A DNA stretch of 31,825 bases from a virus (taxonomy: Duplodnaviria > Heunggongvirae > Uroviricota > Caudoviricetes), in the IMG/VR virus record IMGVR_UViG_2617270941_000009; one strand, given 5' to 3'. A program made the position numbers and the translations under genes. The notes beneath the pieces are model-generated. The model searched no databases. It saw only the letters and a program-made list of their open reading frames with translations, and was not told the origin of the DNA. Shown piece after piece: positions 1-30,495 of this stretch. How positions within the stretch are numbered: position 1 is the first letter of the stretch; each line of letters begins with the position of its first letter.

Positions 1-204
1 TGCCCGGCATCCAACGCCATTCATGGCCATATCAATGATTTTCTGGTGCGTACCGGGTTGAGAAGCGGTGTAAGTGAACTGCAGTTGCCATGTTTTACGG
101 CAGTGAGAGCAGAGATAGCGCTGATGTCCGGCGGTGCTTTTGCCGTTACGCACCACCCCGTCAGTAGCTGAACAGGAGGGACAGCTGATAGAAACAGAAG
201 CCAC
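1..204 (-). CDS. insA: IS1 InsA N-terminal portion (partial, runs off window edge); GTG start at 204
   Basis: Minus-strand frame from the GTG at 204..202 reads [11 protein letters not shown]..., the InsA N-terminus. The track ORF 21..233 is in a different frame and is not InsA. Confidence 0.6.
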
Positions 205-259
205 TGGAGCACCTCAAAAACACCATCATACACTAAATCAGTAAGTTGGCAGCATCACC
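1..259 (-). mobile_element. IS1: IS1 insertion sequence, partial (left end with 23-bp terminal inverted repeat at 237..259; element continues beyond window start)
   Basis: Reverse complement of 1..259 matches the remembered IS1 left end (GGTGATGCTGCCAACTTACTGAT... through the insA N-terminal coding region). Direct sequence recognition; no search run. Confidence 0.9.
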
Positions 260-1008
260 AGCCTTCTTGAGGCTACCACCTGTTTTCAGGTGTCATTCAG
301 ACGTGATTTGCCCCAGATTGGGAAAGCACGCTTTTTTCTCAGCTATCGTCCTCTTATTTTGCCGTTACATTTCTTTTTGCACTCTAATGATTAATTTACA
401 ATAATAATATCGGTAATTATTGAGTAATAATAAATTGATTATTGCAAATGTAATTTAATTCCATCTTCGCGTTATATTCCAATCTTTAATCTCCGCATGG
501 AACAAGTTGCATGCGTGACTATATTAAGACAACTTATAACCACCAAAACATTTGCTTTGCAAGCAAAAACAGTGACCATTGACTCTAAGAAAATTCCGAT
601 CTATTGTTAGGGTCATCAAAGTTACTTAACAGTATTCCGAAATGAAAATACAAAGCAAGCTAATTGTCTTATTAAACATTATCATTGCATTTATATTATT
701 TGAGCTTTTAGCTCAAAAATTTGGTTTGAGTACATTATTTTAAAGCAAGATAAACAATATCGGGCACTCTAGTTTTTATAATTAACAATTAAACGTCCAT
801 AAAATGTTATTTACTTTTCTTCGCTATTGTCATATCTTAATATAGTGGCTTACGCCACTCTACTTTCATCACATTTTGTACGTTTATGTACTCGCCATGA
901 AGCTCTTTCATGGCGATTTTTTATTCTTAATCCAAGAACATACTCCTTACCTATAGCAAAATCACTTTTTGAACAAAAGAATAACGTATTTAGGTAATCA
1001 TTACGAAT

Positions 1009-1590
1009 TTACCCTATAGGTGCTACTGGCCATTCAATATCCGGTGCAGTTGTTGTATTAACACGGTTCAGCAACACCCGATACTTCTTCCAGGCTTCCA
1101 GCAACGAGGTTTCTTCCTCCGTTGCAATTTCCAGATCTGCAGCATCCTGAAGCGGCGCAATATGCTCACTGGCTACCTGCATCAGGCTGTTTTTTGTTTC
1201 TTCCGCCTCCCGGATCCGGAACAGTTTTTCTGCTTCTGCATCTTTCACCCAGGCTGTGCCGTTCCACTTCTGATATTCCCCTCCCGGCGACAACCAGGTA
1301 ACATTTTCCGGTAACGGACCGAGTTCAGAAATAAATAACGCGTCGCCGGAAGCCACGTCATAAACCGTTTTACCCCGATGGTCTTCAACGAGATGCCACG
1401 ATGCCTCATCACTGTTGAAAACAGCCACAAAGCCAGCAGGAATATCTGGTGGTGCAATATCGGTACTGTTTGCTGGCAGACCTGTATGAGGCGGAATATA
1501 TGCGTCACCTTCACCAATAAATTCATTAGTTCCGGCCAGCAGATTATAAATTTTTATGGTCCGTGGTTGTTCACTCATTCTGAATGCCAT
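1009..1590 (-). CDS. tfa: tail fiber assembly protein Tfa (lambda orf-194 type)
   Basis: 193-aa translation [24 protein letters not shown]... is near-identical to remembered lambda Tfa; start overlaps stf stop (ATGA). Confidence 0.9.
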
Positions 1591-4500
1591 TATGCAAGCC
1601 TCACAATATAGTTAAATGCGATGTTTTTGACGGTGTTTTCCGCGTTACCCGCAGCGTTAACGGTGATGGTATGTCCATGTGAGCCAATCGCAACGGAGTG
1701 CGTATGAGCACCAATACCGACAGTATGTGCATGTGCGCCTGCGCTTGCAGCAGTGCCGGACAGCGAGTGGGTATGAGCACCATCTGATGATGTCTTCCCT
1801 GCATTACGAGTCTGGCCACTACCGCTTGTTGTGCTCATAATCCCCGCGCTTAGATTTGAAATCGCAGTATAACCATTAGGAAAAATGCTCGTGTTCGTGC
1901 CACCAAATGCACCGGAACTCTTGTGTTGGTGCGCACCGGCACTATTTGCTGTCCCGCTAATACTATGGGTATGTGCACCAGTGTTATTCGTGGATTTAGT
2001 GCCGTAATCAAAAGATGATGTGGTTTTCGTCCCCAAATCCGTACTGGATGCGCTGGCGCTGTGGGTATGCGATTTAATGCCATCCTGTTCCTGAGACAAT
2101 ACGGCACGACCACTGGCGGGCTTGCCCTTAATCGTCCAGCCACGCATATCAGGGATCACGCCTGACGGATAAGCGGCTGCAAGTTTCGGGTATGCAGATT
2201 TGTCAAAAGTCTGCCCCTGCATCAGGGCATAGCCAGACGGAACGGTATCTGATGGCCACGGGATTGGTGCACCGACTGGATAAAACTCTGCAGGAGGATG
2301 AGCCGAGGTGTAAAGCTGCGCCCACGGCGACCAGTTTGCGTCGGTCGTATCCCGTCGTGAACGAATAAATGCCGGAGCATGAGCACCGCTTGTACCACTC
2401 CAGCCGATGAGTAACTCACCTTCGCCAACGGCTGTCATCCCTTTCAGGTGAATGATATTTCCATACGCTGTTGGATATCCGTTGTTATACACCTCGTATA
2501 ACTCAAGACCTGCTGCCCCCTGCGTATTGTCTGTCAGCGCGGTTACCCGACCTTTTGAAGCCAGATTAACTGATGATACTGCTGTTCCACCTGACGGTAA
2601 CGCCCCGATCTCTGATGCCGTTGGCTTATTTCTGGAGTTATAGTCCCTTCGCCAGCCAGGTGAATAATCTGTTCCGTGATTAATATAGGTAAACTGGGCG
2701 TTAGTTGTTCCACCACCAGTGGAGGTGGTCGGTGTGGTAATGCGGATCGTCATCGCTGACTTTATCCCCATTACTTCAATGACAGCTCCGGCGAGATGAA
2801 TATTACCGCAGTCAGTATCAGTAATGATTTTATTATTGCCATAAGACCAGGAACCCTTGCACATCCAGTATGGATGGTTAAATGCTCCCTGAGAATCCAG
2901 CCACTCGATAAACTGTGCAGTCGTCCAGTTTCCTGTTGTTGTGCTTACTGACCCACCGAAGGCACGGCAGGCACCAATATTTTTCGTAAAGGTATCTTTG
3001 CCAGGGATATCCGCACCGTTCTGATCTTTCTGCAGACGTTTCTCAGCATTGTCATTGGCTGCTTTTACTGCCTTTGGTGTCGCGGCAAGCGTTTCAGACG
3101 TGCTGTTGGTCGCGCTGCTTAGCTGGATTATCCCTTTCTGTGCTGTCGTTGCATCCTGTGCGGTGTATTTCCCGTTAGCCAGGTCATACGCGGCCTTAAC
3201 GGCTTTTGGCGTTGCCGCCAGTGACTCGGAAGTGCTGTTGGTCGCACTGCTGAGCTGTACTATCCCCTTTTTCGTCGTGCTCGCATCCTCAAGCGCCACG
3301 GCGGATGCAATATCCTCTGCCCGTTTTGCCGCTGTCTCAGCGCGCGTTGCTGCGGATTCTGCCGTACTTTTGCTCTGTGCTGCCGCTGTCGCACTGCCAG
3401 CAGCCTCTGTCGCCTTTGTGGATGCCGTCGTGGCGCTGCCCTTCGCTGCTGACGCCTGTCTGGTCGCCTCATCTTTTGAAGCAGACGCCGATGATGCCGA
3501 TGACGCCGCCGAACTGGCGGATGATGCGGCAGCCGTTTTTGAGGATTCTGCGCTGGTTTCCGACGCTTTCGCGTTCGTCTCGGATGTCTTCGCTGCGGAA
3601 GCTGACCTCGCTGCTGCGCTGGCCTGTTCAGTGGCTTCGCCAGCCTTCGTTGTGGCTGTTGAAGCAGACGAGGCGGCACTTTCTGCCGACTTTCCGGCAG
3701 CGGTGGCACTGGCTGAGGCCTGCCCGGCACTTGTTGACGCGGCACTGGCAGATGATGCAGCCGCTGTTTTTGAGCCTGCCGCAGCTGAGGCACTCTGTCC
3801 CGCTGCCGTTTCAGAAGACCTGGCGTTCGTCTCGGACGTCTTTGCCGCCTTCGCGGAATTTCCTGCCGCCGTTGCCGAGGAAGCTGCGCTGCTGGCGCTC
3901 GAGGCTGCGCTCGTTTCTGATGATTTCGCTGCCTCTTTTGAGGCCGCCGCATCCCGGGCTGAGGTGGCAGCTTCTGACGCCTTTGTGGTCGCTGCGGATG
4001 CAGAAGTGGCTGCAGATTTTTGTGACGCTGCCGCATTCGTTTCTGACGTTTTCGCGGCACTGGCACTGGTAGCTGCCGCGCTTTTTGAGGACTCTGCAGC
4101 GGCAGCACTTTTTGATGCTTCAGTAGCCTTTGTTGATGCCGTTCCTGCGCTGGAAGACGCTGACTGAGCCGACGTCGCGGCCTGCCCGGCTGATGTGCTG
4201 GCTGCACGTGCTGAGCCTGCAGCATCAGTCGCATGGGTTGCCGCCTCACGGGCTGATGTGCTGGCATCGCTGGCTGACTTCTTCGCGGCTGCTGTGTTCT
4301 GCGCCACTGCGGACGCGTTACGCGCCACCTCTTCCACCATCAGTTCAAAACGGCGCAGTGCCTCAGGACGGGCATCATCCTCCGTCATGGCACCGAGAAA
4401 ATCATTCAGCGTACCGGGTCGGGAATCTTCATACACGGTGATGGTCCCGGCATGTGACGGCGGGAATCCTTCCACCAACAGAATAACGCTGTACTGACCG

Positions 4501-4664
4501 TACTCAACGTCCATGCTGTAACGCCCGGCCTCATCCGGATTTTCTGAGGCCAGCGTGTTCACCACCACCGTGGTGCTGTTACGTTTTGCTTTCAGCTGGA
4601 TTGTGCAGTTCTGTACCGGTTTTCCTGTGCCGTCTTTCAGTACACCTGAAATCTTTACTGCCAT
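1590..4664 (-). CDS. stf: side tail fiber protein Stf with long Ala/Ser/Thr-rich low-complexity region and His-rich C-terminal receptor-binding part
   Basis: Translation from the ATG at 4664 ([27 protein letters not shown]...) matches the lambda Stf N-terminus; C-terminus ...[31 protein letters not shown] matches the lambda Stf end. The track start at 4670 is GTG; the ATG at 4664 with GGGGTGA upstream is preferred. Confidence 0.85.
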
Positions 4665-4671
4665 ATTCACC

Positions 4672-4702
4672 CCACAAAAAAGCCCGCCTGAACCGGCGGG
4701 CT
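4672..4702 (-). terminator. putative intrinsic terminator downstream of lom (GC hairpin GCCCGCCGG..CAGGCGGGC followed by U-run on minus strand)
   Basis: Inverted repeat agcccgcctgaaccggcgggct seen in sequence, with a T-run on the minus strand after the stem. Confidence 0.4.
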
Positions 4703-4728
4703 GTCATAACACTGTGTTACCTGGCTAA

Positions 4729-5328
4729 TCAGAATTTATAACCGACACCCACGATGAAACCGTCAGTGCGCCAGTCACCACTGCCGGAGCCTTCATAAGC
4801 AATATCAATGGCCACGGATTCGGTCGGGTTAAACTGCACGCCAGCCCCCCACGCCAGAGACGTGTTGCTGTGGCGACCGTCATCACTTCCGGTCAGCACG
4901 TCGTGCGTTTTCCCCTTGTTGTCAGTTACGCGGAGATAATCCCCGGAGAAAGTCGACACACGGCTGTAAGCCATACCCGCCATCGCATACGCGCTGAACC
5001 ATTCATTCACGCGCACAGACGGCCCCGCCATTACGCTGAACCAGCGGTTACGAACGGAATCTTCATGCCAGCGGGTATTGCTGTAACGGGTCAGCTGGCG
5101 ATTCTTGTCTCCTGCATAGCTGAATGACGTCACCAGCCCCAGCGTATCCGTAAACTCGTAGCGGTATTTCACGTTAATCCCGTTCAGATCATCGCTGCCG
5201 GGTACGTTGGTCCGGGCATGAAGATACCCCGCGCTCAGTGTGGACTGATGTTCAGACGCCCATGAAGGCGCACCGGATACGGCCAGACAGATGGCTGCGG
5301 ACAAAATTGCTGCACAAACTTTACGCAT
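4729..5328 (-). CDS. lom: outer membrane protein Lom (Ail/Lom family)
   Basis: 199-aa translation with signal peptide and C-terminal ...FIVGVGYKF, matching remembered lambda Lom. Confidence 0.9.
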   Translation of the reverse strand: MRKVCAAILSAAICLAVSGAPSWASEHQSTLSAGYLHARTNVPGSDDLNGINVKYRYEFTDTLGLVTSFSYAGDKNRQLTRYSNTRWHEDSVRNRWFSVMAGPSVRVNEWFSAYAMAGMAYSRVSTFSGDYLRVTDNKGKTHDVLTGSDDGRHSNTSLAWGAGVQFNPTESVAIDIAYEGSGSGDWRTDGFIVGVGYKF

Positions 5329-5398
5329 AATTACCTCTCGCTTTTCTGCAATAAAAAAGGCGTCATTCCTGACGCCCTTTATTGGGGTTATAAATATT

Positions 5399-6576
5399 TC
5401 AACGAATACTGATGCCGGAAGCAGCCTTTTTGGTCACAATCACCGTACAGTCGGTGATATTACCTGCCCCCTGATTGCCTTTCTGGAAAATCTTAAACTC
5501 CAGAGTGACGCTTCCTCTGCCACTCGGCATATCAATAACCGCACTGTAACTACCGGGAATGGCCCCTTTAGTTTCTCTGGATGCGATTAATACGCCGTTT
5601 TTGCGAACTTCAAAACCATAACCTGTGTATCGCGTGCCTCCGGGGTTATTTCCGCTCCCCGGATCGTCATACGCCACACCGTTAAAAATAATGGGCGGAA
5701 TAATGATTTGACGGTCAAAGTTATGATCATCGCTGATAGTGACTGTAACCGTCCCGTTTGGTGTTTCCGTGTTACCCCACGTACCAGCCTTCTTCGGGAA
5801 TGATTTGGATACTGTTTTAACAAAATCGCCTCTGACCTGATTCGCCTCCAGCATGCCCTTAATCGTACAGTTCTCATTTATCTTGACGTTGTTTAGCGTC
5901 CCGGCGTTCGCATTCACACTGCCACTGATATCCGCATTTTTCGCCGTCAGTCGCCCGTCCGGTGTCAGGGAAAATGCCGGAGGATTACCGCCGCTGGTAA
6001 TGGTAGGAGCCGTCAGGCGTTTCAGGAACACGTCGTTCATGAATATCTGATCGCCCTGCCCAACAAACATCGGCTTTGTGTTGCCATTCGCAGGATTAAT
6101 CATCGCAATCCTGTCTGCCGCCAGCAGCACCTGACTCTGCATGCCGTCAGGGGTGTTCTCAATACCGGCACCAATACCCGCGATATAAAGGCGTCCGTCC
6201 TGCATCTGCTGCAGCTTCACAGCCCACATGCTGTTCAGATTATTATTTGTATCAACCTGAACCTTCTGTATCTGCTGGATCGCTGCACTCTGGTCTTCCA
6301 GTTTCTTATTGACGGTCTGTGTGATTTCATTGCTGACATCCGTAATGGATGTCCTGATTTCAGCCAGGTCAGGCGCAAGCTGACCGTTATCAATCTGCGT
6401 CCACAGCTCCTGAGCCAGATGGGTTTTCCCTATCTCGCCTTTGAAAAAATCCAGATAGCCGGATGCGTCATCACTCGGCTGACCAACAGCCTCCACGAAT
6501 GCCGATTTGCCAACGGTGTTCACACTGCGAACGTAAAAATAATAATTATGGCCCGGCCTGATATTGATACTGGCGG
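5399..6576 (-). pseudogene. J: C-terminal fragment of tail tip protein J (host specificity protein), 5'-truncated by an internal prophage deletion
   Basis: Translation ...[33 protein letters not shown]...[30 protein letters not shown]... resembles the J C-terminal region. The first ~35 residues of the track ORF 5399..6688 are read through the nu1/cos region and are not J. Confidence 0.8.
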
Positions 6577-6623
6577 CTACTCGCACCGAAAATGTCAGCC
6601 AGCTGCTTTTTGTTGACTTCCAT
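6577..6623 (-). pseudogene. nu1: remnant of terminase small subunit nu1 (first ~15 codons, [15 protein letters not shown]) fused at a deletion junction to the J fragment
   Basis: Minus strand from the ATG at 6623 reads ATGGAAGTCAACAAAAAGCAGCTGGCTGACATTTTCGGTGCGAGT, the lambda nu1 start, then diverges into J-frame sequence. Confidence 0.65.
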
Positions 6624-6800
6624 TGTTCATTCCACGGCCAAAAACAGAGAAAGGAAACGACAAAGGCCCAAAAGTTCGTTTTCAGCACCTGTCGTTTCCT
6701 TTCTTTTTAGGGGGTATTTTAAATAGAAACATTAAGTTACGACGAAGAAGAACGGAAACGCCTTAAACCGGAAAATTTTCATAAATAGCGAAAACCCGCG

Positions 6801-6812
6801 AGGTCGCCGCCC
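6801..6812. other. cos: cosN cohesive-end site (12-nt GGGCGGCGACCT, seen as reverse complement), flanked by cosB and cosQ-like sequence
   Basis: aggtcgccgccc at 6801..6812 with flanking ...CGCGGGTTTTCGCTATTTATGAAAATTTTCCGGTTTAAGGCGTTTCCG on the minus strand matches the remembered lambda left end. Confidence 0.8.
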
Positions 6813-7011
6813 CGTAACCTGTCGGATCGCCGGAAAGGACCCACAAAATGATAATAATTATCATCTACATGTCACAACGTGCATCTACGCCATCAAACCA
6901 CGTCAAATAATCAATTATGACGCAGGTATCGTATTAATTGATCTGCATCAACTTAACGTAAAAACAACTTCAGACAATACAAATCAGCGACACTGAATAC
7001 GGGGCAACCTC

Positions 7012-7206
7012 ATGTCAACGAAGAACAGAACCCGCAGAACAACAACCCGCAACATCCGCTTTCCTAACCAAATGATTGAACAAATTAACATCGCTCTTGA
7101 GCAAAAAGGGTCCGGGAATTTCTCAGCCTGGGTCATTGAAGCCTGCCGTCGGAGGCTAACGTCAGAAAAGAGAGCATATACATCAATTAAAAGTGATGAA
7201 GAATGA
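7012..7206 (+). CDS. small hypothetical protein (64 aa), ylcI-like, possible ribbon-helix-helix DNA-binding fold
   Basis: ORF MSTKNRTRRTTTRNIRFPNQMIEQINIALEQKGSGNFSAWVIEACRRRL; position and size match DLP12 ylcI. Family assignment is from memory. Confidence 0.5.
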   Translation: MSTKNRTRRTTTRNIRFPNQMIEQINIALEQKGSGNFSAWVIEACRRRLTSEKRAYTSIKSDEE

Positions 7207-7370
7207 ACATCCCGCGTTCTTCCCTCCGAACAGGACGATATTGTAAATTCACTTAATTACGAGGGCATTGCAGTAATTGAGTTGCAGTTTTACCACTTTC
7301 CTGACAGTGACAGACTGCGTGTTGGCTCTGTCACAGGTTAAGTAGTTTGAATGATTAGCAGTTATGGTGA

Positions 7371-7577
7371 TCAGTCAACCACCAGGGAATAATCCTTCAT
7401 ATTATTATCGTGCTTCACCAACGCTGCCTCAATTGCCCTGAATGCTTCCAGAGACACCTTATGTTCTATACATGCAATTACAACATCAGGGTAACTCATA
7501 GAAATGGTGCTATTAAGCATATTTTTTACACGAATCAGATCCACGGAGGGATCATCAGCAGATTGTTCTTTATTCAT
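7371..7577 (-). CDS. small hypothetical prophage protein (68 aa), ybcW-like
   Basis: ORF with position and size matching DLP12 ybcW and the lambda right-end ORFs. Confidence 0.5.
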
Positions 7578-7862
7578 TTTGTCGCTCCATGCGCTTGCTC
7601 TTCATCTAGCGGTTAAAATATTACTTCAAATCTTTCTGTATGAAGGTTTGAGCACGTTGGCCTTACATACATCTGTCGGTTGTATTTCCCTCCAGAATGC
7701 CAGCAGGACCGCACTTTGTTACGCAACCAATACTATTAATTGAAAACATTCCTAATATTTGACATAAATCATCAACAAAACACAAAGAGGTCAGACCAGA
7801 TTGAAGCGATAAAAACGATAATGCAAACTACGCGCCCTCGTATCACATGGAAGGTTTTACCA

Positions 7863-8273
7863 ATGGCTCAGGTTGCCATTTTTAAAGAAATATTCGATCA
7901 AGTGCGAAAAGATTTAAACTGTGAATTGTTTTATTCTGAACTAAAACGTCACAATGTCTCACATTATATTTACTATCTAGCCACAGATAATATTCACATT
8001 GTGTTAGAAAACGATAACACCGTGTTAATAAAAGGACTTAAAAAGGTTGTAAATGTTAAATTCTCAAGAAATACGCATCTTATAGAAACGTCCTATGATA
8101 GGTTGAAATCAAGAGAAATCACATTTCAGCAATACAGGGAAAATCTTGCTAAAGCAGGAGTTTTCCGATGGATTACAAATATCCACGAACATAAAAGATA
8201 TTACTATACCTTTGATAATTCATTACTATTTACTGAGAGCATTCAGAACACTACACAAATCTTTCCACGCTAA
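7863..8273 (+). CDS. DUF1398-type prophage protein, ybcV-like
   Basis: Translation from the ATG at 7863 ([43 protein letters not shown]...) matches remembered YbcV; the track start at 7740 is a TTG and is less likely. Confidence 0.6.
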
Positions 8274-8563
8274 ATCATAACGTCCGGTTTCTTCCGTGTC
8301 AGCACCGGGGTGTTGGCATAATACAATACATGTACGCGCTAAACCCTGTGTGCATCGTTTTTAATTATTCCCGGACACTCCCGCAGAGAAGTTCCCCGTC
8401 AGGGCTGTGGACATAGTTAATCCGGGAATACAATGACGATTCATCGCACCTGGCATACATTAATAAATATTAACAATATGAAATTTCAACTCATTGTTTA
8501 GGGTTTGTTTAATTTTCTACACATACGATTCTGCGAACTTCAAAAAGCATCGGGAATAACACC

Positions 8564-8857
8564 ATGAAAAAAATGCTACTCGCTACTGCGCTGGCCCTGC
8601 TTATTACAGGATGTGCTCAACAGACATTTACTGTTCAAAACAAACAGACAGCAGTAGCACCAAAGGAAACCATCACCCATCATTTCTTCGTTTCTGGAAT
8701 TGGGCAGAAGAAAACTGTCGATGCAGCTAAAATTTGTGGCGGCGCAGAAAATGTTGTTAAAACAGAAACCCAGCAAACATTCGTAAATGGATTGCTCGGT
8801 TTTATTACTTTAGGCATTTATACTCCGCTGGAAGCGCGTGTGTATTGCTCAAAATAA
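8564..8857 (+). CDS. bor: Bor lipoprotein (serum resistance, Iss family), lysogenic conversion factor
   Basis: 97-aa translation MKKMLLATALALLITGCAQQTF... with lipobox LITGC, matching lambda Bor/DLP12 BorD; opposite strand to the lysis genes as in lambda. Confidence 0.9.
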   Translation: MKKMLLATALALLITGCAQQTFTVQNKQTAVAPKETITHHFFVSGIGQKKTVDAAKICGGAENVVKTETQQTFVNGLLGFITLGIYTPLEARVYCSK

Positions 8858-8888
8858 TTGCATGAGTTGCCCATCGATATGGTCAGCT

Positions 8889-9362
8889 CTATCTGCACTG
8901 CTCATTAATATACTTCTGGGTTCCTTCCAGTTGTTTTTGCATAGTGATCAGCCTCTCTCTGAGGGTGAAATAATCCCGTTCAGCGGTGTCTGCCAGTCGG
9001 GGGGAGGCTGCATTATCCACGCCGGAGGCCGTGGTGGCTTCACGCACTGACTGACAGACTGCTTTGATGTGCAACCGACGACGACCAGCGGCAACATCAT
9101 CACGCAGAGCATCATTTTCAGCTTTCGCATCAGCTAACTCCTTCGTGTATTTTGCATCGAGCGCAGCAACATCACGCTGACGCATCTGCATGTCAGTAAT
9201 TGCCGCGTTCGCTAGCTTCAGTTCTCTGGCATTTTTGTCGCGCTGGACTTTGTAGGCGATTGCGTTATCACGGTAATGATTGACCGCCCATGACAGGCTG
9301 ACGATGATGCAGATAATCAGAGCGGATATAATCGCGGTTACTCTGCTCACTGTTGCCCCCAC
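8889..9362 (-). CDS. Rz: Rz i-spanin (inner membrane spanin subunit)
   Basis: Translation ...[54 protein letters not shown]... matches lambda Rz; N-terminal TM helix. Start may be the GTG at 9362 or the GTG at 9350. Confidence 0.85.
8948..9130 (-). CDS. Rz1: Rz1 o-spanin lipoprotein, embedded in the +1 frame of Rz
   Basis: 60-aa translation [24 protein letters not shown]...[29 protein letters not shown] with lipobox and proline-rich region, wholly inside Rz. Confidence 0.85.
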
Positions 9363-9844
9363 AAACAGACTTCACGCTCAATCTCACGACGAGTCATCAG
9401 GCCTTTCCATTGCTTACCGCCAGCGTATGTCCAGCGACGCAGCTGATCACATGCGCCTTTGATATCGCCCTGGTTTATTTTGCGAAGAAGCGTCGATGTT
9501 CTAAAATTGCCAGCACCCACGTTGTAAACGAATGAGTAAAGAGCGCCGCGCGTTGTTTCCGGTATATCGACTTTGATATACGGGTTAATTTGTCTGGCGA
9601 CAGTGGCAAGGTCTTTATTCAAGAGTGCTTTGCATTCTGCTTTGGTATACGTTTTACCGAGCATGATGTCTTTTCCGGTGTGTCCGTGACATACAGTCCA
9701 TACACCAACAATATCTTTGTATGGTATGTAGCTGACACCTTCCAGACCATCGTTACCACTTGGGCCAGTGATTAACACTGATGCTATAGCAATTGCTCCG
9801 CCACCAATAGCAGCAGCAACGGCTTTTCGTAATGATGGAGGCAT
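9347..9844 (-). CDS. R: SAR endolysin (phage 21 R21-type lysozyme with N-terminal signal-anchor-release domain)
   Basis: 165-aa translation with Gly/Ala-rich weakly hydrophobic N-terminus ([20 protein letters not shown]), typical of a SAR domain, followed by a lysozyme-like domain; stop overlaps the Rz start. Confidence 0.85.
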
Positions 9845-10059
9845 TATTCACCTCTCGCAGCCTTGCGCTTATCTTCTTTAATCTTGAAATAAAGGTTTGT
9901 CAGGTACGTCAGCAGGCCAAATACCAGGCTACCCAGCACACCTATTGCTGCCCACTGTGAGGGAGTGACTTTATCTAGCAGCTGTAAAAACCAGTACCCG
10001 GCACTACCTGCTGAGGTGCCATAGGCGACACCCGTTGTTAACTTATCCATGGATTTCAT
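9844..10059 (-). CDS. S: pinholin S21-type with dual-start motif (M1 and M4: antiholin/holin)
   Basis: 71-aa translation [26 protein letters not shown]..., two TM segments and a charged C-terminus; matches remembered phage 21 S21 / DLP12 EssD. Confidence 0.9.
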
Positions 10060-10170
10060 AACCCCACCTCGCAGACAAAGCGGGTGTAAATTGAGGGAAT
10101 ACTACGAAACGTAACAGACTCGGAGTCAGTGAATAACTCAGGTATTGGGTTATCAGCTAATATCGAGACT

Positions 10171-10201
10171 CAAAAAATGGAAAAACCCGCTCGACGGCGG
10201 G
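10171..10201 (-). terminator. intrinsic terminator upstream of S on the late-gene strand, tR'-like
   Basis: Minus-strand hairpin CCCGCCGTCGAGCGGG followed by UUUUUCCAUUUUUU, about 115 nt upstream of the pinholin start. Confidence 0.5.
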
Positions 10202-10386
10202 TTTAAGCTGTGTGACGAAGTAACCACTCTTAACAGCATAACCAATTTTTTACGTACGTAAACCACTAAATGATATTTGAGAGAATGCTACCGAGTATTG
10301 AAAACACCACTACAAATACATAAGCAAATCTCAACAAATAACCAAAAAATAATTTCCAGTGTTATTTTTAGCCGGTTTAAATTGAA

Positions 10387-10430
10387 CCTTCAAATTATAG
10401 AGCACTTATAAATAACAGCCGTTAATATAA
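10387..10430 (-). promoter_or_regulatory. candidate late promoter (PR'-like) with perfect TATAAT -10 at 10394..10399 on minus strand, ~190-200 nt upstream of the tR'-like terminator
   Basis: TATAAT hexamer seen on the minus strand; spacing to the downstream terminator resembles the lambda PR'-6S RNA-tR' arrangement. No convincing -35 found. Inference. Confidence 0.3.
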
Positions 10431-10632
10431 ATTGGCTAATAGATTTATTTTTATTCAGCCAAGAGCCATGAATAGGATTCGATAGAAAAAAGTTCAGATA
10501 AAAATAGAGATCTACTTCACAAATCAAACGAGAAACCAAAACTTACATCTTGAAATAATCACATTGATTAGATGAATATTTATCGCGCAGTGACATCATT
10601 TTTTAATAATAGTTCAAAAAAAAGGGCTCACG

Positions 10633-11715
10633 ATGAAAAAATTAACAGTGGCAATTTCTGCTGTAGCTGCATCAGTACTGATGGCGATGTCTGCTCAGGC
10701 AGCTGAAATTTATAATAAAGACAGTAACAAGCTGGATCTGTACGGGAAAGTTAATGCTAAGCACTACTTCTCCTCTAATGATGCAGATGATGGTGATACT
10801 ACTTATGCCCGTCTTGGCTTCAAAGGTGAAACCCAAATCAACGATCAACTGACTGGTTTCGGTCAGTGGGAATATGAATTCAAAGGCAACCGCGCTGAAT
10901 CTCAAGGTTCCTCCAAAGATAAAACCCGTCTTGCCTTCGCTGGCCTGAAATTCGGTGACTACGGCTCAATCGATTACGGCCGTAACTACGGTGTAGCATA
11001 CGACATCGGTGCGTGGACTGACGTTCTGCCAGAATTCGGTGGCGATACCTGGACCCAAACAGATGTATTCATGACTGGTCGCACCACAGGTGTTGCAACT
11101 TATCGTAACAACGACTTCTTTGGTCTGGTTGATGGCCTGAACTTTGCAGCTCAGTATCAGGGCAAAAATGACCGAAATGAAGTAACTGAAGCTAATGGCG
11201 ATGGTTTCGGTTTCTCAACTACTTATGAGTATGAAGGATTCGGCGTGGGTGCAACCTATGCTAAATCTGATCGCACTAATAATCAGGTTATCTACGGTAA
11301 CAACGGTCTGAATGCTTCTGGTCAAAATGCTGAAGTATGGGCAGCTGGTCTGAAATATGATGCGAACAACATCTATCTGGCCACCACCTATTCTGAAACC
11401 CAGAACATGACTGTTTTTGGTAATAACCATATTGCCAACAAAGCACAAAACTTCGAAGCTGTTGCACAATATCAGTTCGACTTCGGCCTGCGTCCATCCG
11501 TTGCTTACCTGCATTCTAAAGGAAAAGACTTGGGTGTTTGGGGTGATCAGGACCTGGTTGAATATGTTGATGTAGGTGCAACCTATTACTTCAACAAAAA
11601 TATGTCCACTTTTGTTGACTACAAAATCAACCTGATTGATAAGAGCGATTTCACGAAAGCATCTGGCGTTGCTACCGATGATATCGTTGCTGTAGGTATG
11701 GTTTACCAGTTCTAA
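10633..11715 (+). CDS. nmpC: outer membrane porin of the OmpC/OmpF family (NmpC / phage Lc-type), apparently intact
   Basis: 360-aa translation with signal peptide [30 protein letters not shown]..., beta-barrel porin motifs and C-terminal ...VAVGMVYQF. Located between Q and the lysis genes on the opposite strand, as in DLP12. Confidence 0.9.
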
Positions 11716-11851
11716 TTTGATTACTAAAAGATATGTTGTGGGAGGCTTTGCCTCCCCAACATATAAGTGGCTCCCTCAAGCCACTTCCTTTAGAAGCACA
11801 ACCTTGCTTCTAACTATATAAACCTTCTGTTATATATTACCCTTTATTTTT

Positions 11852-11876
11852 GGGGGCGTTTCAACGCCCCATTTTT
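11852..11876 (+). terminator. intrinsic terminator downstream of nmpC (GGGGCGTT-TCAA-CGCCCC + T-run)
   Basis: Hairpin plus ATTTTT seen at 11852..11876; additional long inverted repeats at ~11730..11790. Confidence 0.5.
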
Positions 11877-11903
11877 AATAACTTTTAGTAAATAATTGGC
11901 GTA

Positions 11904-12287
11904 TTAATTAGAGTTATTAACAACGATATCCATCTCTAACCGGATATCTAATGCCATTAACATCCCTTCAATTATGCCCTCAGCCTTTTGTAACCTTTTC
12001 CCGATATAACCATCAGAGCAGCAATGCTTACCTGCCAGTGACATGAATGTCATACCGACTACATAATAATCTACTAATAAATCGTGCAAATCGCTGTTGT
12101 TCTTTTTCAGACGGGCCATGCACCCGCAAATAATCATCGCGTCATCGTCACAACATTGCGGGCGAGATTTTACTTTTGAAGTAATTAATCCCTTAAAACC
12201 GGCGGCAATGGACGACCAGGTCACATCTTCATGATTATTAGCCGCCCACGCTCCCCAACGCTCAAGAACCATCTGAATATCACGCAT
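11904..12287 (-). CDS. quuD: late gene antiterminator Q (DLP12 QuuD / phage 82-type)
   Basis: Translation from the ATG at 12287 ([21 protein letters not shown]...[18 protein letters not shown]...) matches remembered QuuD, with GGAG RBS upstream. The track ORF starts 5 codons earlier. Confidence 0.8.
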
Positions 12288-12369
12288 CAACTTACTCCAC
12301 AAAAATCAGACCAGAACGCCAATTACAAGCAAAAATCAACAAAACAGTATTAGTTGATTGTTATCTCTG

Positions 12370-12510
12370 ACTTCATACTCCTGCTCCTGTCAGGGTTTTG
12401 GCGTAATTCTTCAGTATTCGGTAATCGGTCAAAACAGAACCGGGGAAACGATATAAGCGCAGATGCCCCCAGCGGTGGCGAAGAAGTTCTGCCATATAAA
12501 ACTCAAACAT
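12370..12510 (-). CDS. ylcG: small protein YlcG-like (46 aa)
   Basis: Untracked 46-codon ORF ([45 protein letters not shown]), start overlapping the rusA stop; size and position match DLP12 ylcG. Sequence identity is not from memory. Confidence 0.45.
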
Positions 12511-12872
12511 CATTCATTCCCCATTTCGGTGATGGTCAGTTCCAGCCTCCCACCTTTGGTAACAGGCATCTTCACAACGCGGTAATCAACGACCTGAGCA
12601 TCATCCAGCCAGAAACCTGCTTTGGTGAGTGCGTCAAAAGAGGCTTTTTGTAGATTATCCAGGTCACGGCGACGGCGATCCGGCATGTGGCACTCAATGC
12701 GGATTTTCACAGGCATAGCCAGACCGATATCCAGCATTGAGCCTTTAATGATTCGGGCGACGTTATCGCGGTATGCCTGCCCTTCTGCGCTGATGTGCGT
12801 GCGCCCTCGATTATGGCGGTAGTAGCGGTTATTGCTCGGCGGCCAGGGTAGTGTGATGTGGTAAGTATTCAC
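12510..12872 (-). CDS. rusA: Holliday junction resolvase RusA
   Basis: 120-aa translation [42 protein letters not shown]... matches RusA family. Confidence 0.9.
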
Positions 12873-13198
12873 GCCTTAATTACCCCCTCTTTCAGCCAGA
12901 TAACCTGCGTTCTCGCCATACCTTCCAGCGCGCATTCTTTTGCATATCCAGCGTCAACAAAATGCGTGCGGCGGTCGATTTCGTCGTGGCAGGCAGAACA
13001 TGCAATGGTGGCAATCAGGTCTGGCGGTTTCGTACCGGTGCCGCACAATCCAGTCAGCCGGATATGTGCCAGTACAGACGTTTCAGGGTTGCCATTACAT
13101 ACGCCAGGGATTCTTACCTGGCATTCCCGACCACGCGCTGCTTTTCTCAAATCAGCCATGATTCCTCCTTGCTGCCAGTCGCAACCATTTTTTATCAA
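12869..13198 (-). CDS. ybcO: DUF1364-type prophage protein YbcO-like (Cys-rich, putative nuclease)
   Basis: 109-aa ORF with multiple Cys (CQVRIPGVC...CGTGTK...CSACHDEID), position between ninE and rusA as in DLP12. Confidence 0.7.
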
Positions 13199-13322
13199 CC
13201 AGGCTAGCGGTATATCCGAGCAGTGTTGGTATTTCGGATGGCTTCAGCTCAGGTTTACGCTTACGACGATTTGGTACTTTGTAGATGTGTCCGTTCATGA
13301 CACGAATAAGCGGTGTAGCCAT
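13152..13322 (-). CDS. ninE: NinE protein
   Basis: Translation from the internal ATG at 13322 ([56 protein letters not shown]) matches NinE; start overlaps the ninB stop. Confidence 0.7.
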   Translation of the reverse strand: MATPLIRVMNGHIYKVPNRRKRKPELKPSEIPTLLGYTASLVDKKWLRLAARRNHG

Positions 13323-13777
13323 TACGCCTCCTGCTTGTCGCGCAGCAGCTGAAACTCGCAGCTCTGTGGAATAGTCAGGTGGCAACCAATATTCATCGCC
13401 CAGGCTTCAACCTTACACAGGAAGACATACATCTCTCCGGTATCAAGATCGGAGGTATGGCGTAACGACTGGATAGTGGTGATATCACCGGTTACGACAT
13501 CAACCAGGTCTTTGGTTTCATAACCGAGATATGTGTGTTTGAGAGCATCTTTTACCCAAGCTGGAGTGGCGAACGTTTTACCCTTGCTGATGAGGTATTC
13601 ACTGATTTCGCTGTACCACATGTGGCTGAGTGCATTCTGGGAAAGACTGCGTCTCTCGCGCCACGGTTTAAGCACCATGCGAAAGCATTTGCCGTCCTCC
13701 AGATAAGGCTGGATCTGCCGACCAATAGCGGTGAAGTTACCGCGATGCAGTTTGATGCCATCTTGTGGGAAGTTCAC
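13322..13777 (-). CDS. ybcN: NinB/Orf-family recombination protein (DLP12 YbcN-like)
   Basis: 151-aa translation [21 protein letters not shown]...; GTG start with GGAGGTG RBS; NinB-family motif [12 protein letters not shown]. Confidence 0.75.
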
Positions 13778-13872
13778 GCTTCACCTCCGCAGAGATCAAA
13801 CGCTGGATGCAAAAAAACGCAGGTGCATTTCTGCATCTGTGGCAAGGCGAGGAGTTCAACTTGTGGTCGCAT
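13774..13872 (-). CDS. small ORF (32 aa) translationally coupled to ninB, YlcH-like; overlaps a conserved duplicated element
   Basis: Untracked [35 protein letters not shown]; TGA overlaps the ninB GTG (GTGA). Coding status uncertain. Confidence 0.35.
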
Positions 13873-13947
13873 ATAATTTCCCAATCATATGCGCAGAAGT
13901 CACCGCAGGGTGTTCAGGCCAACGGTGACGGTATTATTGCTTATTGA

Positions 13948-14199: not shown

Positions 14200-14258
14200 G
14201 GCAAAAGCTCCTTTTTCTTATGAATCCATATGTTAGCTAAATTGGAGAGACACAGTAG

Positions 14259-15357: not shown

Positions 15358-15484
15358 AAACGTCCCCGTTTAGCGCAGAAGTCACCGGAGTTGTTCAGGC
15401 TCCGGCTTATTAATATTGCCTACTTACAATTAATTTTTCAACTGTTAGAAACTTATAATTAGCTGTCTCTTTGTAACTATCAAT

Positions 15485-17768: not shown

Positions 17769-17948
17769 TTAAAAATAACATACCGTTCGCCAGACCTTAC
17801 CATCAATGACCAGGATTCCTGCCCGCGCCATTTTTGCCGCAGCCTGATTTATGCTGGTTAATGTCACACCTGTTGTCGCAGCAACGTCCGGCGCACAGAA
17901 GCTCTTGTGCGTCCCCAGGTAATGAATAATTGCTTCTTTTCCCGTCAT
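17769..17948 (-). pseudogene. ren: truncated ren (N-terminal 59 codons of lambda Ren, overlapping the P stop), interrupted by the foreign AT-rich cassette
   Basis: Untracked ORF MTGKEAIIHYLGTHKSFCAPDVAATTGVTLTSINQAAAKMARAGILVIDGKVWRTVCYF*; matches the lambda Ren N-terminus then ends prematurely. ATG overlaps the P TGA (ATGA), as in lambda. Confidence 0.7.
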
Positions 17949-18646
17949 ACACTGGCTCCTTTCAGTCCGAACTTAGCTTTGATTTCTGCAATCTTCGCCA
18001 GAGCCTGTGCACGATTTAGAGGTCTACCGCCCATGACAGGAAGTTGTTTTACTGGTTCAGGTATAGCCTCACCACGGTTAATTCTCGCAGTCATATGGGC
18101 AAGTTCATCGGCAGCCTTGCGCCGTAATTCCGAGTCAGTCAACGCATTAGCCCGCATGTTCTGATACAGGTTGGTAACCAGCCAGTAGTGCGCGTTTGAT
18201 TTCCACGGATAAGACTCTGCGTCCGGATACAGGCCACGCTTCCGGCAATACTCGTAAACCATATCAACCAGCTCGCTGGCGTTTGGCAGTCCGGCGGTAA
18301 CGGATGCTTCTTCCCGGCACCATGCAACAAACTGCCCGGGTGATGGCAGAAATGGTCGATTCTGCCGACGGGCTACGCGCATTCCTGCGTTAACCTGTTC
18401 CATCGTGGTGATCCCGTTTTCCCGAAAAGCCAGAACCCACTGGCGACGGATTTCGTTCACTTCGTTCTGGTCACGGTTAGCCAGGCTCGCCGGGAAAGTT
18501 GCCAGTAACTGGCTGAACACACCGTTGATGATCTGCGCTACCTGCTGTACCTGCGGCTTTTCGTCGTACTGTTCCGGCATGTTGTTGGCGATCCGACGCA
18601 TCTGCTCACGGTCAAAGTTAACCATCTGTGCGGCGATGTTTTTCAT
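17945..18646 (-). CDS. P: replication protein P (DnaB helicase loader)
   Basis: 233-aa translation near-identical to remembered lambda P (MKNIAAQMVNFDREQMRRIANNMPEQYDEKPQVQQ...). Confidence 0.95.
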   Translation of the reverse strand: MKNIAAQMVNFDREQMRRIANNMPEQYDEKPQVQQVAQIINGVFSQLLATFPASLANRDQNEVNEIRRQWVLAFRENGITTMEQVNAGMRVARRQNRPFLPSPGQFVAWCREEASVTAGLPNASELVDMVYEYCRKRGLYPDAESYPWKSNAHYWLVTNLYQNMRANALTDSELRRKAADELAHMTARINRGEAIPEPVKQLPVMGGRPLNRAQALAKIAEIKAKFGLKGASV

Positions 18647-19542
18647 AGATCCACCCCGTAAATCCAGTCTGTGTTTGTCAGGTCGAGTTTTGGTTTGCTG
18701 GCTGTCACGCCTGCCTGTTGCTTGTTACGGTTGATTTCGAGTTGGGTCCACTTATCGCGGAGTTTGGCCGGGCTCAGCACGTTACCGGACCAGAAGTTGT
18801 CCTGGCATGCCCAGCGGAACAGCACGCACATGTCGCGGTGGTTACGTCCGTCACGTTCACGCATCAGGCGGATATCGTTAGCCCACCCAGCAAAATTCGG
18901 TTTTCTGGCTGATGGTGCGATAGTCTTCACCATGTCAAACATCCACTCTGCGGCGGTCAGGTCTTCTGCTGTCCCCCACTTGCTGCCGCTCTGAATTGCA
19001 GCATCCGGTTTCACCACAGAAAGGTCGTTTTCTGGCTGGTCAGAGGATTCGCCAGAATTCTCTGACGAATAATCTTTTCTTTTTTCTTTTGTAATAGTGT
19101 CTTTTGTGTCCCCCTGTTTTGAGGGATAGCAATCCCCCAATTTGAGGGATGTTTTATCCCTCGTTTTAGGGGATTTTCCCTCGTTTTGAGGGATGCACCA
19201 TTCTGAGATGTTTTTATTTGGTCCAAACATGCCGCCTTGCTGCTTGATAATATTCATTCTGACGAGTTCTAACTTGGCTTCATTGCACCGTTTGACGGGT
19301 AACTTTGTAATCTCGCTAAGTTGAGAATCGGTGATTCTGTCCATTGGTTTATTCCACCCATAGGTTTTACGCAGAATGGCAAGCAGCACTTTAAACTGTC
19401 GCTTGGTCAGATCTGCGCCCGAATAAGCCTCAAGCAGCATATTTGATAGTCTGGCGTAACCATCATCGAGATCTGCCACATTACGCTCCTGTCCGGCAAA
19501 GTTACCTCTGCCGAAGTTGAGTATTTTTGCTGTATTTGTCAT
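18643..19542 (-). CDS. O: replication initiator protein O
   Basis: 299-aa translation near-identical to remembered lambda O (MTNTAKILNFGRGNFAGQERNVADLDDGYARLSNMLLEAY...). Confidence 0.95.
   Translation of the reverse strand: MTNTAKILNFGRGNFAGQERNVADLDDGYARLSNMLLEAYSGADLTKRQFKVLLAILRKTYGWNKPMDRITDSQLSEITKLPVKRCNEAKLELVRMNIIKQQGGMFGPNKNISEWCIPQNEGKSPKTRDKTSLKLGDCYPSKQGDTKDTITKEKRKDYSSENSGESSDQPENDLSVVKPDAAIQSGSKWGTAEDLTAAEWMFDMVKTIAPSARKPNFAGWANDIRLMRERDGRNHRDMCVLFRWACQDNFWSGNVLSPAKLRDKWTQLEINRNKQQAGVTASKPKLDLTNTDWIYGVDL
19110..19196. other. ori: ori-lambda: four iterons (TCCCTCAAAACGAGGGA-type repeats) inside the O gene, with adjacent AT-rich region
   Basis: Repeats ccctgttttgaggga / atcccccaatttgaggga / atccctcgttttagggga / tccctcgttttgaggga seen; AT-rich block at ~19060..19105. 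Confidence 0.85.
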
Positions 19543-19552
19543 AATGACTCCT

Positions 19553-19629
19553 GTTGATAGATCCAGTAATGACCTCAGAACTCCATCTGGATTTGTTCAG
19601 AACGCTCGGTTGCCGCCGGGCGTTTTTTA
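19553..19629 (+). ncRNA. oop: oop antisense RNA (overlaps the 3' end of cII), with intrinsic terminator to (CCGCCGGGCG + T-run)
   Basis: Sequence GTTGATAGATCCAGTAATGACCTCAGAACTCCATCTGGATTTGTTCAGAACGCTCGGTTGCCGCCGGGCGTTTTTTATT matches the remembered lambda oop RNA. Confidence 0.75.
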
Positions 19630-19868
19630 TTGGTGAGAATCGCAGCAACTTGTCGCGCCAATCGAGCCATGTCGTCGTCAACGACCCCCCATTCAAGAAC
19701 AGCAAGCAGCATTGAGAACTTTGGAATCCAGTCCCTCTTCCACCTGCTGATCTGCGACTTATCAACGCCCACAGCTTCCGCTGTCTTCTCAGTTCCAAGC
19801 ATTGCGATTTTGTTAAGCAACGCACTCTCGATTCGTAGAGCCTCGTTGCGTTTGTTTGCACGAACCAT
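19575..19868 (-). CDS. cII: transcriptional activator CII
   Basis: Translation from the ATG at 19868 (MVRANKRNEALRIESALLNKIAMLGTEKTAEAVGVDKSQISRWKRDWIPKF...) is identical to remembered lambda CII; the track ORF extends 20 codons upstream. Confidence 0.95.
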   Translation of the reverse strand: MVRANKRNEALRIESALLNKIAMLGTEKTAEAVGVDKSQISRWKRDWIPKFSMLLAVLEWGVVDDDMARLARQVAAILTNKKRPAATERSEQIQMEF

Positions 19869-19987: not shown

Positions 19988-21343
<1,356 letters not shown>

Positions 21344-29140: not shown

Positions 29141-29359
29141 ATGTACTTGACACTTCAGGAGTGGAACGCTCGCCAGCGACGCCCAAGAAGCCTTGAAACA
29201 GTTCGTCGATGGGTGCGCGAATGCAGGATATTCCCTCCTCCGGTTAAGGATGGAAGAGAATATCTGTTCCACGAATCAGCGGTAAAGGTTGACTTAAATC
29301 GACCAGTAACAGGTAGCCTTTTGAAGAGGATCAGAAATGGGAAGAAGGCGAAGTCATGA
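29141..29359 (+). CDS. xis: excisionase Xis
   Basis: 72-aa translation MYLTLQEWNARQRRPRSLETVRRWVRECRIFPPPVKDGREYLFHESAVKVDLNRPVTGSLLKRIRNGKKAKS matches lambda Xis. Confidence 0.95.
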   Translation: MYLTLQEWNARQRRPRSLETVRRWVRECRIFPPPVKDGREYLFHESAVKVDLNRPVTGSLLKRIRNGKKAKS

Positions 29360-30407
29360 GCGCCGGGATTTACCCCCTAACCTTTATATAAGAAACAATG
29401 GATATTACTGCTACAGGGACCCAAGGACGGGTAAAGAGTTTGGATTAGGCCGAGACAGGCGAATCGCAATCACTGAAGCTATACAGGCCAACATTGAGTT
29501 ATTTTCAGGACACAAACACAAGCCTCTGACAGCGAGAATCAACAGTGATAATTCCGTTACGTTACATTCATGGCTTGATCGCTACGAAAAAATCCTGGCC
29601 AGCAGAGGAATCAAGCAGAAGACACTCATAAATTACATGAGCAAAATTAAAGCAATAAGGAGGGGTCTGCCTGATGCTCCACTTGAAGACATCACCACAA
29701 AAGAAATTGCGGCAATGCTCAATGGATACATAGACGAGGGCAAGGCGGCGTCAGCCAAGTTAATCAGATCAACACTGAGCGATGCATTCCGAGAGGCTAT
29801 AGCTGAAGGCCATATAACAACAAACCCGGTCGCAGCCACTCGCGCTGCAAAATCAGAGGTAAGGAGATCAAGACTTACGGCTGACGAATACCTGAAAATT
29901 TATCAAGCAGCAGAATCATCACCATGTTGGCTTAGACTTGCAATGGAACTGGCTGTTGTTACCGGGCAGCGAGTTGGTGATTTATGCGAAATGAAGTGGT
30001 CTGATATCGTAGATGGATATCTTTATGTCGAGCAAAGCAAAACAGGCGTAAAAATTGCCATCCCAACAACATTGCATGTTGATGCTCTCGGGATATCAAT
30101 GAAGGAAACACTTGATAAATGCAAAAAGATTCTTGGCGGAGAAACCATAATTACATCTACTCGTCGTGAACCGCTTTCATCCGGCACAGTATCAAGGTAT
30201 TTTATGCGCGCACGAAAAGCATCAGGTCTCTCCTTCGAAGGGGATCCGCCAACCTTTCACGAGTTGCGCAGTTTGTCTGCAAGACTCTATGAGAAGCAGA
30301 TAAGCGATAAATTTGCTCAACATCTTCTCGGGCATAAGTCGGACACCATGGCATCACAGTATCGTGATGACAGAGGCAGGGAGTGGGACAAAATTGAAAT
30401 CAAATAA
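29337..30407 (+). CDS. int: tyrosine integrase Int (lambda type)
   Basis: 356-aa translation MGRRRSHERRDLPPNLYIRNNGYYCYRDPRTGKEFGLGRDRRIAITEAIQ... matches lambda Int; overlaps xis as in lambda. Confidence 0.95.
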   Translation: MGRRRSHERRDLPPNLYIRNNGYYCYRDPRTGKEFGLGRDRRIAITEAIQANIELFSGHKHKPLTARINSDNSVTLHSWLDRYEKILASRGIKQKTLINYMSKIKAIRRGLPDAPLEDITTKEIAAMLNGYIDEGKAASAKLIRSTLSDAFREAIAEGHITTNPVAATRAAKSEVRRSRLTADEYLKIYQAAESSPCWLRLAMELAVVTGQRVGDLCEMKWSDIVDGYLYVEQSKTGVKIAIPTTLHVDALGISMKETLDKCKKILGGETIITSTRREPLSSGTVSRYFMRARKASGLSFEGDPPTFHELRSLSARLYEKQISDKFAQHLLGHKSDTMASQYRDDRGREWDKIEIK

Positions 30408-30495
30408 TGATTTTATTTTGACTGATAGTGACCTGTTCGTTGCAACAAATTGATAAGCAATGCTTTTTTATAATGCCAACTTAGTATAAAAAAGC
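30408..30495. other. attL: attL junction: P' arm with Int arm-type sites and 15-bp core TTAGTATAAAAAAGC (30481..30495, reverse complement of GCTTTTTTATACTAA) abutting host DNA
   Basis: Core sequence and adjacent P'-arm sequence (tgatttcaattttgtcccactccc...caaattgataagcaatgcttttttataatgccaac) seen as reverse complement. Confidence 0.85.

Follow-up and report, generated by a model that had tools for sequence, protein, structure and literature searches.

A nu1–J deletion joint in a defective lambda-like prophage of Escherichia coli and an apparently recurrent breakpoint in J

Introduction

What removed the head and tail genes from the lambda-like prophage held in IMG/VR virus record IMGVR_UViG_2617270941_000009, and does the joint that was left behind reflect ordinary decay, retention for cargo or spread by helper phages? 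The 31,825-nt stretch of DNA analysed here (the window) carries this prophage in reverse, with nu1, J, lom, stf, tfa and cos read on the minus strand, and at positions 5399–6812 the start of nu1, next to cos, runs directly into the middle of J. Our favoured reading, held with considerable confidence, is that the element is a lambda-like mosaic prophage in which one illegitimate deletion of ~17.6 kb occurred as part of ordinary decay. As such it is one more defective lambdoid prophage, a member of a well-known kind; if anything here could surprise a specialist, it is that the breakpoint in J, and possibly the whole joint, has recurred.

Results

A single deletion joins nu1 codon 15 to J codon 774

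Alignment to the lambda genome matched window positions 6574–6812 to lambda 240..1 with 95.4% identity and placed the joint between lambda nu1 position 236 and J position 17824, so that lambda 237–17823 (17,587 bp) is missing; no sequence from lambda 241–17821 was found anywhere in the window. The deletion took out the larger part of nu1, all of genes A through I, and J up to codon 773. The initial annotation, made from the letters of the window, had proposed that 15 codons of nu1 are followed by the ~390 C-terminal residues of J and that the head genes and most tail genes are gone, and the alignment to lambda that it called for bears this out in both segments. The features at the joint are as follows.

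6546..6623, minus strand: nu1′ remnant, with ATG at 6623 and authentic codons 1–15 down to 6579, plus one further base
6578..6579, minus strand: TA microhomology at the deletion junction, common to the nu1 and J parents
5399..6577, minus strand: J′ fragment, J codons 774–1165 (392 codons plus stop at 5399–5401), without a start codon of its own

The window reads GCGAGTA|GCCGCC across the junction, while the parental sequences read GAGTA|TCCG in nu1 and CTGGATA|GCCG in J. The J′ fragment (6577 down to 5402) has 51% amino acid (aa) identity, with an insertion, to lambda J 774–1132, and is identical at 1177 of 1179 nt to codons 774–1165 of the intact J of E. coli 13E0767. The J of strain TUM1887, also considered as the parental allele, was rejected because it is only 78–86% identical. 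On the other side, strain 2014C-4135, whose structural genes are intact, matches the cos-to-O region of the window with 98.9% identity, and the match begins right at the breakpoint, at position 6574. To judge from these parental alignments, the joint is the product of one internal, illegitimate, microhomology-mediated deletion from nu1 codon 15/16 to J codon 773/774.

The initial annotation had described nu1 as fused to J; the joint is real, but the reading frame is not continuous across it. Past codon 15 the nu1 frame continues for 10 out-of-frame codons inside J′ and stops at TAA (6546–6548) after 25 codons in total, and since the joint is out of frame, no Nu1–J fusion protein would be made from the nu1 start. 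To judge from the sequence, nu1′ is a 25-codon dead end and J′ a promoterless fragment without a start of its own; in a promoter and terminator scan of 4500–10700, the counts were at shuffle level. A 429-codon open reading frame (ORF) at 5399–6688 opens at a GTG (6688) in cosB that happens to lie in the J frame. This GTG is brought in frame with J′ by a 1-nt deletion in the cosB spacer relative to lambda, AAGGA lies 8 nt upstream of it inside the R2 repeat, and the resulting 429-aa ORF is annotated by gene callers. For annotation, nu1′ and J′ are to be treated as pseudogene fragments, and a Nu1–J fusion protein is not expected to be made.

Eight contigs, from runs independent of one another, carry the exact junction-spanning 429-aa ORF, and the complete genome AHB21 has the same nu1-15|J-774 joint; the junction is therefore not an assembly artefact. 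It is nevertheless rare: among 5,426 complete E. coli genomes only one has the joint, and a scan for the exact junction 32-mer found no match in GTDB species representatives or JGI metagenome contigs.

The deletion is best explained as a recent step of prophage decay

The element has an att site with adjoining integrase, lambdoid gene order and homology, and has lost the genes for particle formation, as expected of a defective lambdoid prophage. It is predicted to be unable to make terminase, heads or tail shafts. As the initial annotation had also stated, a packaging site and the lysis, replication and immunity genes are kept (cos, S/R/Rz, O/P, cI/cro and int/xis are intact), and lom, stf and tfa are open and complete by Pfam and by comparison with lambda Tfa. 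Gene content thus suggests that induction would probably lead to replication and cell lysis without particles, killing the cell without phage release.

We propose that illegitimate joining at the TA microhomology removed ~17.6 kb in one step, that this would be an evolutionarily recent event in an ordinary course of decay, and that the deletion probably started where J is locally fragile or prone to pausing, with a J-side endpoint that would not be random. Recency is suggested by the rarity of the joint, the near-identity of J′ to a functional J and the 2014C-4135 match that starts at the breakpoint. The most likely biological role, by analogy with K-12 prophages, is that of a chromosomal DNA reservoir, from which infecting lambdoid phages could acquire the cos-flanking and J′/lom/stf/tfa segments by homologous recombination: the cos/nu1/A region of DLP12 and the stf/tfa regions of Qin and Rac donate DNA to infecting phages, and breaks at cos stimulate exchange (De Paepe et al. 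2014, PMC3945230). No observation speaks against the deletion as such, but two points weaken what is concluded from it. The argument for recency relies on near-identity to intact alleles, and later gene conversion could give the same pattern; the reservoir role is carried over from K-12 prophages.

The J breakpoint looks recurrent and may be a fragile site

At the DNA level, at least 11 different left partners, in unrelated prophages, cross into J within the ATA of CTGG-ATA-GCCGCC. The following are among those joined at J codon 774.

nu1 codon 168 (L042)
terminase A codon 81 (L009)
portal B (L055)
ClpP-type prohead protease of a different head module (L012)
tape-measure C-terminus (L043)
YmfL/CP76-type regulator (L048)
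J codons ~185 and ~558 (L049 and L051)
sequence without an assigned gene (L011)

Two reciprocal joints, in which J extends up to …CTGGATA and is followed by stf (L053, L054), were confirmed in DNA, and a third (P0160) is visible in protein sequence only. In joints with known parents, one to four bases are shared and the crossing point falls within GGATA; most left partners resemble GGNTA. Each joint type is rare, which points to independent, short-lived events. Taken together, these joints suggest that illegitimate recombination has occurred repeatedly at J codon 774.

A first protein search was biased, in its top-120 list, to short proteins consisting mostly of J′; its proportion of 5/8 was therefore not used as a statistic, and an unanchored census was run instead, in which J 495–1165 (13E0767 numbering) was compared with 1.84 billion representative proteins. 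Breakpoints were spread over the whole of J, with 5 of 58 events falling at codons 771–774 (P about 0.012 for any 4-codon window) and a stronger cluster of nine events at J 592–603 (P about 0.0003). Three different partners join at J codon 559; the census proteins behind these last two sites lie within P0121–P0268. On the other side of the joints, nu1 codon ~168 (…AAALDEL) is a recurrent left endpoint (L042; L052, which is PCP07083, annotated as a 765-aa coding sequence; P0013, P0124, P0145 and P0263), and the in-frame Nu1–J fusion ORFs that it yields enter J at five or more different points (about 499, 520, 559, 563 and 773). Lambdoid prophage deletions do not end at random, and short sites recur with many partners. 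A rearranged J ORF was observed in a 608-aa Shigella sonnei protein (P0001): after a C-terminal segment of J (to ~residue 980, …NPPAFSLTP), J starts again at codon ~740 and runs to its end; this looks like a partial internal duplication of J.

As to the cause of recurrence, a fixed site with variable partners, crossed in both directions and with microhomology, would fit a local break, or a pausing polymerase, that is resolved by microhomology-mediated joining or template switching. In intact J the break falls in the 7-nt loop of the inverted repeat TACTGG-ATAGCCG-CCAGTA, and the cause could be a small hairpin that is broken in its loop, a pause in replication or a nick made at this specific site. 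Several other causes were considered. A domain or mosaic boundary was rejected, as codon 774 falls midway through Pfam Ig_J_second and intact J alleles show no change in identity at that point. A Chi-like cause is disfavoured, given that ACTGGCGG, on the bottom strand beside the break, has two mismatches to Chi, and that a better site on the same strand, GCTGGCGG at J nt 1852, shows no breakpoint cluster. At the J site, neither an inserted element nor an insertion sequence was found. Inspection by eye showed no convincing match of the site to cosN, the lambda att core, invertase (gix/hix) half-sites, the core sites of integrons, the ends of IS1, targets of IS630, FokI-type sites or gyrase/topoisomerase consensus sequences. 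A search of IMG/VR with the reciprocal left flank GGCGCTGTACTGGATAH returned 27 matches, almost all of them chance matches in unrelated phages and two being ordinary J codon variants, and the 19-mer with position −1 other than A returned two chance matches.

We therefore put forward, tentatively and with somewhat less than even confidence, that J 773/774 (CTGG-ATA-GCCGCC) is a sequence-determined fragile site that can be crossed in both directions, and that the nu1-15|J-774 joint arose independently at least twice. Several observations count against it. Much of the evidence comes from searches anchored on J 774, the unanchored census is only moderately significant, and other recurrent sites exist at J 559, J 592–603 and nu1 ~168; moreover, the extended hairpin is significant in one J allele only (z −2.5) as against the lambda-type allele (z −0.9), and its core, with a 6-bp stem and 7-nt loop at −3.7 kcal/mol, was matched by 16 of 200 shuffles. 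If such sites are truly fragile, they would give a handle on the illegitimate recombination that makes cryptic prophages and chimeric tail-tip genes, would steer both prophage decay and the origin of chimeric J genes, and would help to predict which remnants (cos, the J C-terminus, lom, stf and tfa) persist as a recombination reservoir.

One origin or two for the joint shared with AHB21

The comparison with AHB21 (L008) bears most directly on whether the joint formed more than once. Across window positions 3823–7174 (3,352 bp), AHB21 differs at 141 sites (4.2%), all of them substitutions, without indels; those closest to the joint are 17 nt from it in the direction of nu1 and 20 nt in the direction of J. 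For the pair of J′ copies the ratio of nonsynonymous to synonymous divergence (dN/dS) is 0.084 with dS of 0.18, compared with about 2.1 in out-of-frame controls. Each J′ allele is 99.7–99.8% identical to an intact J elsewhere, a different one for each copy, and the differences between them thus arose in functional phages. Either the joint arose on two occasions, or its two flanks were later replaced up to a distance of about 20 bp from it.

The second of these, a single ancestral deletion whose flanks were later overwritten by homologous exchange with other lambdoid phages, is a serious possibility that we nonetheless regard as rather doubtful. Both elements sit at att-lambda, share a common Q–porin–lysis architecture and are 99% identical in the int–ybhC flank, and defective prophages are well known to exchange DNA with lambdoid phages (PMC3945230). 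Differences at 17 and 20 nt, however, would demand crossovers confined to very short homologies on either side of the joint; a parallel origin is made plausible by the independent evidence that breaks recur at the J site; and the window and AHB21 differ in immunity and nin-region content.

Retention of the deleted prophage for its cargo is unlikely

The initial annotation had raised the possibility that the deleted element is selectively kept for its cargo, and for this we found no positive evidence: the joint is rare and J′ is 99.8% identical to a functional J, which is more in keeping with a recent event than with prolonged retention. Stated fully, this explanation holds the element to be domesticated through selection on bor, lom, porin, the NACHT ATPase and stf/tfa, and it could draw on the facts that the cargo ORFs are all open, that lom shows a dN/dS of 0.25 between the window and AHB21, that dN/dS in J′ is lower still beside its out-of-frame controls, and that defective prophages at att-lambda are common. 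The low dN/dS in J′ is explained without selection here, given the divergence of the J′ copies in functional phages; every joint type examined is a singleton or near-singleton; and the host-killing lysis and replication genes are still intact, contrary to what long domestication would leave. We accordingly consider selection on cargo unlikely.

The cos region is of lambda type, yet packaging by a helper is improbable

The cos region, judged by its subsites, is complete and of lambda type, in agreement with the earlier observation of an intact cosN on the minus strand. The names cosQ and cosB are given to what we take to be these subsites.

6801..6812, minus strand: cosN GGGCGGCGACCT, identical to lambda
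6836..6842, minus strand: cosQ-like GGGTCCT, identical to lambda
6624..6800, minus strand: cosB region, with R3, R2 and R1 repeats (CGTTTCC-type) identical to lambda

Relative to lambda, the cosB spacers carry four substitutions between R3 and R2 and more changes between R2 and R1, including the 1-nt deletion. At least 30.2 kb of the element lies inside the window, and the cos-to-cos unit is estimated at ~33.5 kb, using TUM1887 for the part beyond IS1, which is 69% of the lambda genome; a dimer would reach 138%. Lambda heads accept roughly 78–105% of the lambda genome length. The suggestion that a helper phage could package the element through cos is therefore weakened, as on this estimate the monomer would be too short and the dimer too long for lambda heads.

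On these grounds we regard it as very unlikely that the element is a cos-bearing, satellite-like unit packaged and spread by a helper lambdoid phage, even though cosQ, cosN and cosB are complete and lambda-type, O, P, int and xis are intact, and the presence of the same joint in the diverged AHB21 could suggest spread of a deleted form. The annotated and Pfam-scanned ORFs include no genes for capsid size or packaging redirection, the joint is very rare in complete genomes and unmatched in GTDB representatives and metagenome contigs, and the window and AHB21, already different at −17 and +20 nt, have flanks that match different intact phage alleles, a pattern that is not that of one spreading deleted unit. 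Only one copy of the att core lies in the window, the far end being beyond IS1; in AR_0369, which shares the same IS1, the att core was not found on that side, while it is present in AHB21 and TUM1887.

Phage-inducible chromosomal islands (PICIs) of the cos type and cosmids likewise carry cos without terminase or capsid genes of their own, and a cos that a helper would recognize is indicated here by the identity of the cosQ-like sequence, cosN, R3, R2 and R1 to lambda. PICIs are, however, small (about 10–15 kb) compared with this element, and they combine their own repressor/derepression circuit, a primase-type replicon and packaging redirection with an absence of lysis genes; the element has instead 434 cI/cro, lambda O/P and a full holin–lysozyme–Rz cassette.

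Misassembly of the draft genome can be dismissed with near certainty, for although the window derives from a draft contig ending in IS1, the two sides of the junction share only 2 bp, which no assembler k-mer could bridge, and the joint recurs on the independent contigs and in a complete genome as described above.

The architecture is familiar from other lambdoid prophages

The architecture of the element is already known from Qin and DLP12 of E. coli K-12. Qin (nohQ′-L′-J′-stfQ′-tfaQ; seen in strain LZHX12, L010) has the same order of lysis genes, cos, a nu1 5′ fragment, a J fragment and side tail fibre genes, and likewise lacks head and tail-shaft genes. It differs in having several joints (nu1 1–347 | L 13502–13675 | J 17536–17971 | stfQ′), compared with the single joint in the window, and in having also lost immunity, replication and int, which the window element keeps. 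DLP12 (essD-rrrD-rzpD-bor-cos-nohD) has the same type of Q, porin, holin and lysozyme module and the same cos–nu1 neighbourhood. It keeps a cos that infecting lambda can use for recombination (PMC3945230). The map in that paper places it at argU, with nu1 (nohD) and part of A still present, whereas the window element keeps only 15 nu1 codons and is located at att-lambda.

Three prophages at the same chromosomal site, in AHB21, AR_0369 (L004) and TUM1887 (L006), have related mosaic content and have lost structural genes downstream of cos. In AR_0369, nu1 (lambda 1–401) is joined to a truncated lom; in TUM1887 the capsid and tail-shaft genes are gone, but nu1, A, W, B and a full J remain; AHB21 has the identical joint with about 4–5% divergence and a different immunity region. 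Across E. coli strains, att-lambda holds related prophages in varied states of decay, each with different internal deletions. The att-lambda remnant of E. coli B (REL606, L005) was rejected as the same element, since it has lambda-type int/xis and otherwise unrelated content. Lambda imm434 hybrids likewise combine lambda-type int/xis, red, N, cII, O, P, Rz and cos (97–100% aa identity) with 434 cI/cro; the window element differs from them in being natural and in its DLP12-type Q/S/R, its different J/lom/stf, its extra cargo and its structural deletion.

Gene inventory of the element and its chromosomal site

Window positions 2399–9688 are 100% identical to contig JNQK01000015.1 of E. coli draft genome GCA_000703965.1, and window position 1 is the end of that contig, inside IS1. 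From there the order is IS1, tfa, stf, lom, J′, nu1′, cos, the lambda right-arm end with bor and Rz/Rz1, and a DLP12-type Q/lysis module in which a porin gene is present, followed by the nin region, lambda P/O/cII, 434 cro/cI, N, ea10, cIII, kil, gam, bet, exo, xis, int, the att core and host ybhC. The element is a lambda-like mosaic (lambda arms, 434 immunity and DLP12-type Q/lysis genes) at att-lambda in E. coli.

1..259, minus strand: partial IS1, terminal inverted repeat at 237–259
1009..1590, minus strand: tfa, tail fibre assembly, 193 aa, intact, 95% identical to lambda Tfa residues 1–192
1590..4670, minus strand: stf, side tail fibre, about 1024–1026 aa, open; Pfam phage_tail_N, Phage_fiber_2 and Collar; gene call of 1024 aa in L044
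4729..5328, minus strand: lom, Ail/Lom outer-membrane protein, 199 aa, intact; Pfam Ail_Lom positions 1–199 of 199
6813..9349, minus strand: lambda right-arm end, lambda 48502..45967 at 98%, with Rz/Rz1, lambdap78 and lambdap79 ORFs
8564–8857, plus strand: bor, within the lambda right-arm end
9347–9844, minus strand: lysozyme, rrrD-like, DLP12-type, 98.9% identity to locus L003
9844–10059, minus strand: holin, essD-like, DLP12-type, 98.9% identity to locus L003
11904..12302, minus strand: Q antiterminator, quuD type, Pfam Phage_antitermQ
17945..19868, minus strand: P, O and cII, full length, 99–100% aa identity to lambda
19988..20942: immunity region, with cro on the minus strand (about 19988–20203) and cI on the plus strand (20310–20942, 210 aa)
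29141..30407, plus strand: xis and int, full length, 98.6% aa identity to lambda
30481..30495, minus strand: att core GCTTTTTTATACTAA, prophage/host junction, with host ybhC from 30542 onward

The ybhC flank is 99.9% identical to E. coli, and the att core sits between int and ybhC. Collinear blocks with 92–98% nt identity to lambda comprise int–xis, red, N, cII–O–P, Rz–cos and stf/tfa. The retained lambda-type genes are full length with 91–100% protein identity, red/gam and N being also intact, and ren is the only truncated one. The cI/cro pair is one that we take to be of phage 434 type; lying in an otherwise lambda-like early region, it makes the element a natural mosaic of the lambda imm434 type.

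At the contig end, IS1 abuts the DNA downstream of tfa (260–1008), and the same IS1 junction occurs in 91 complete E. coli genomes. Three ORFs on the plus strand, at 20867–21343 (158 aa), 22017–22898 (293 aa) and 27148–27762 (204 aa), gave no Pfam match and occupy places where lambda has sieB/ral, rex and part of the b region. In the nin region, a 650-aa NACHT-domain ATPase is encoded at 15485–17437 on the minus strand, between the ren remnant and a Bro-N/P22AR antirepressor-like ORF, and is a candidate defence-type cargo gene.

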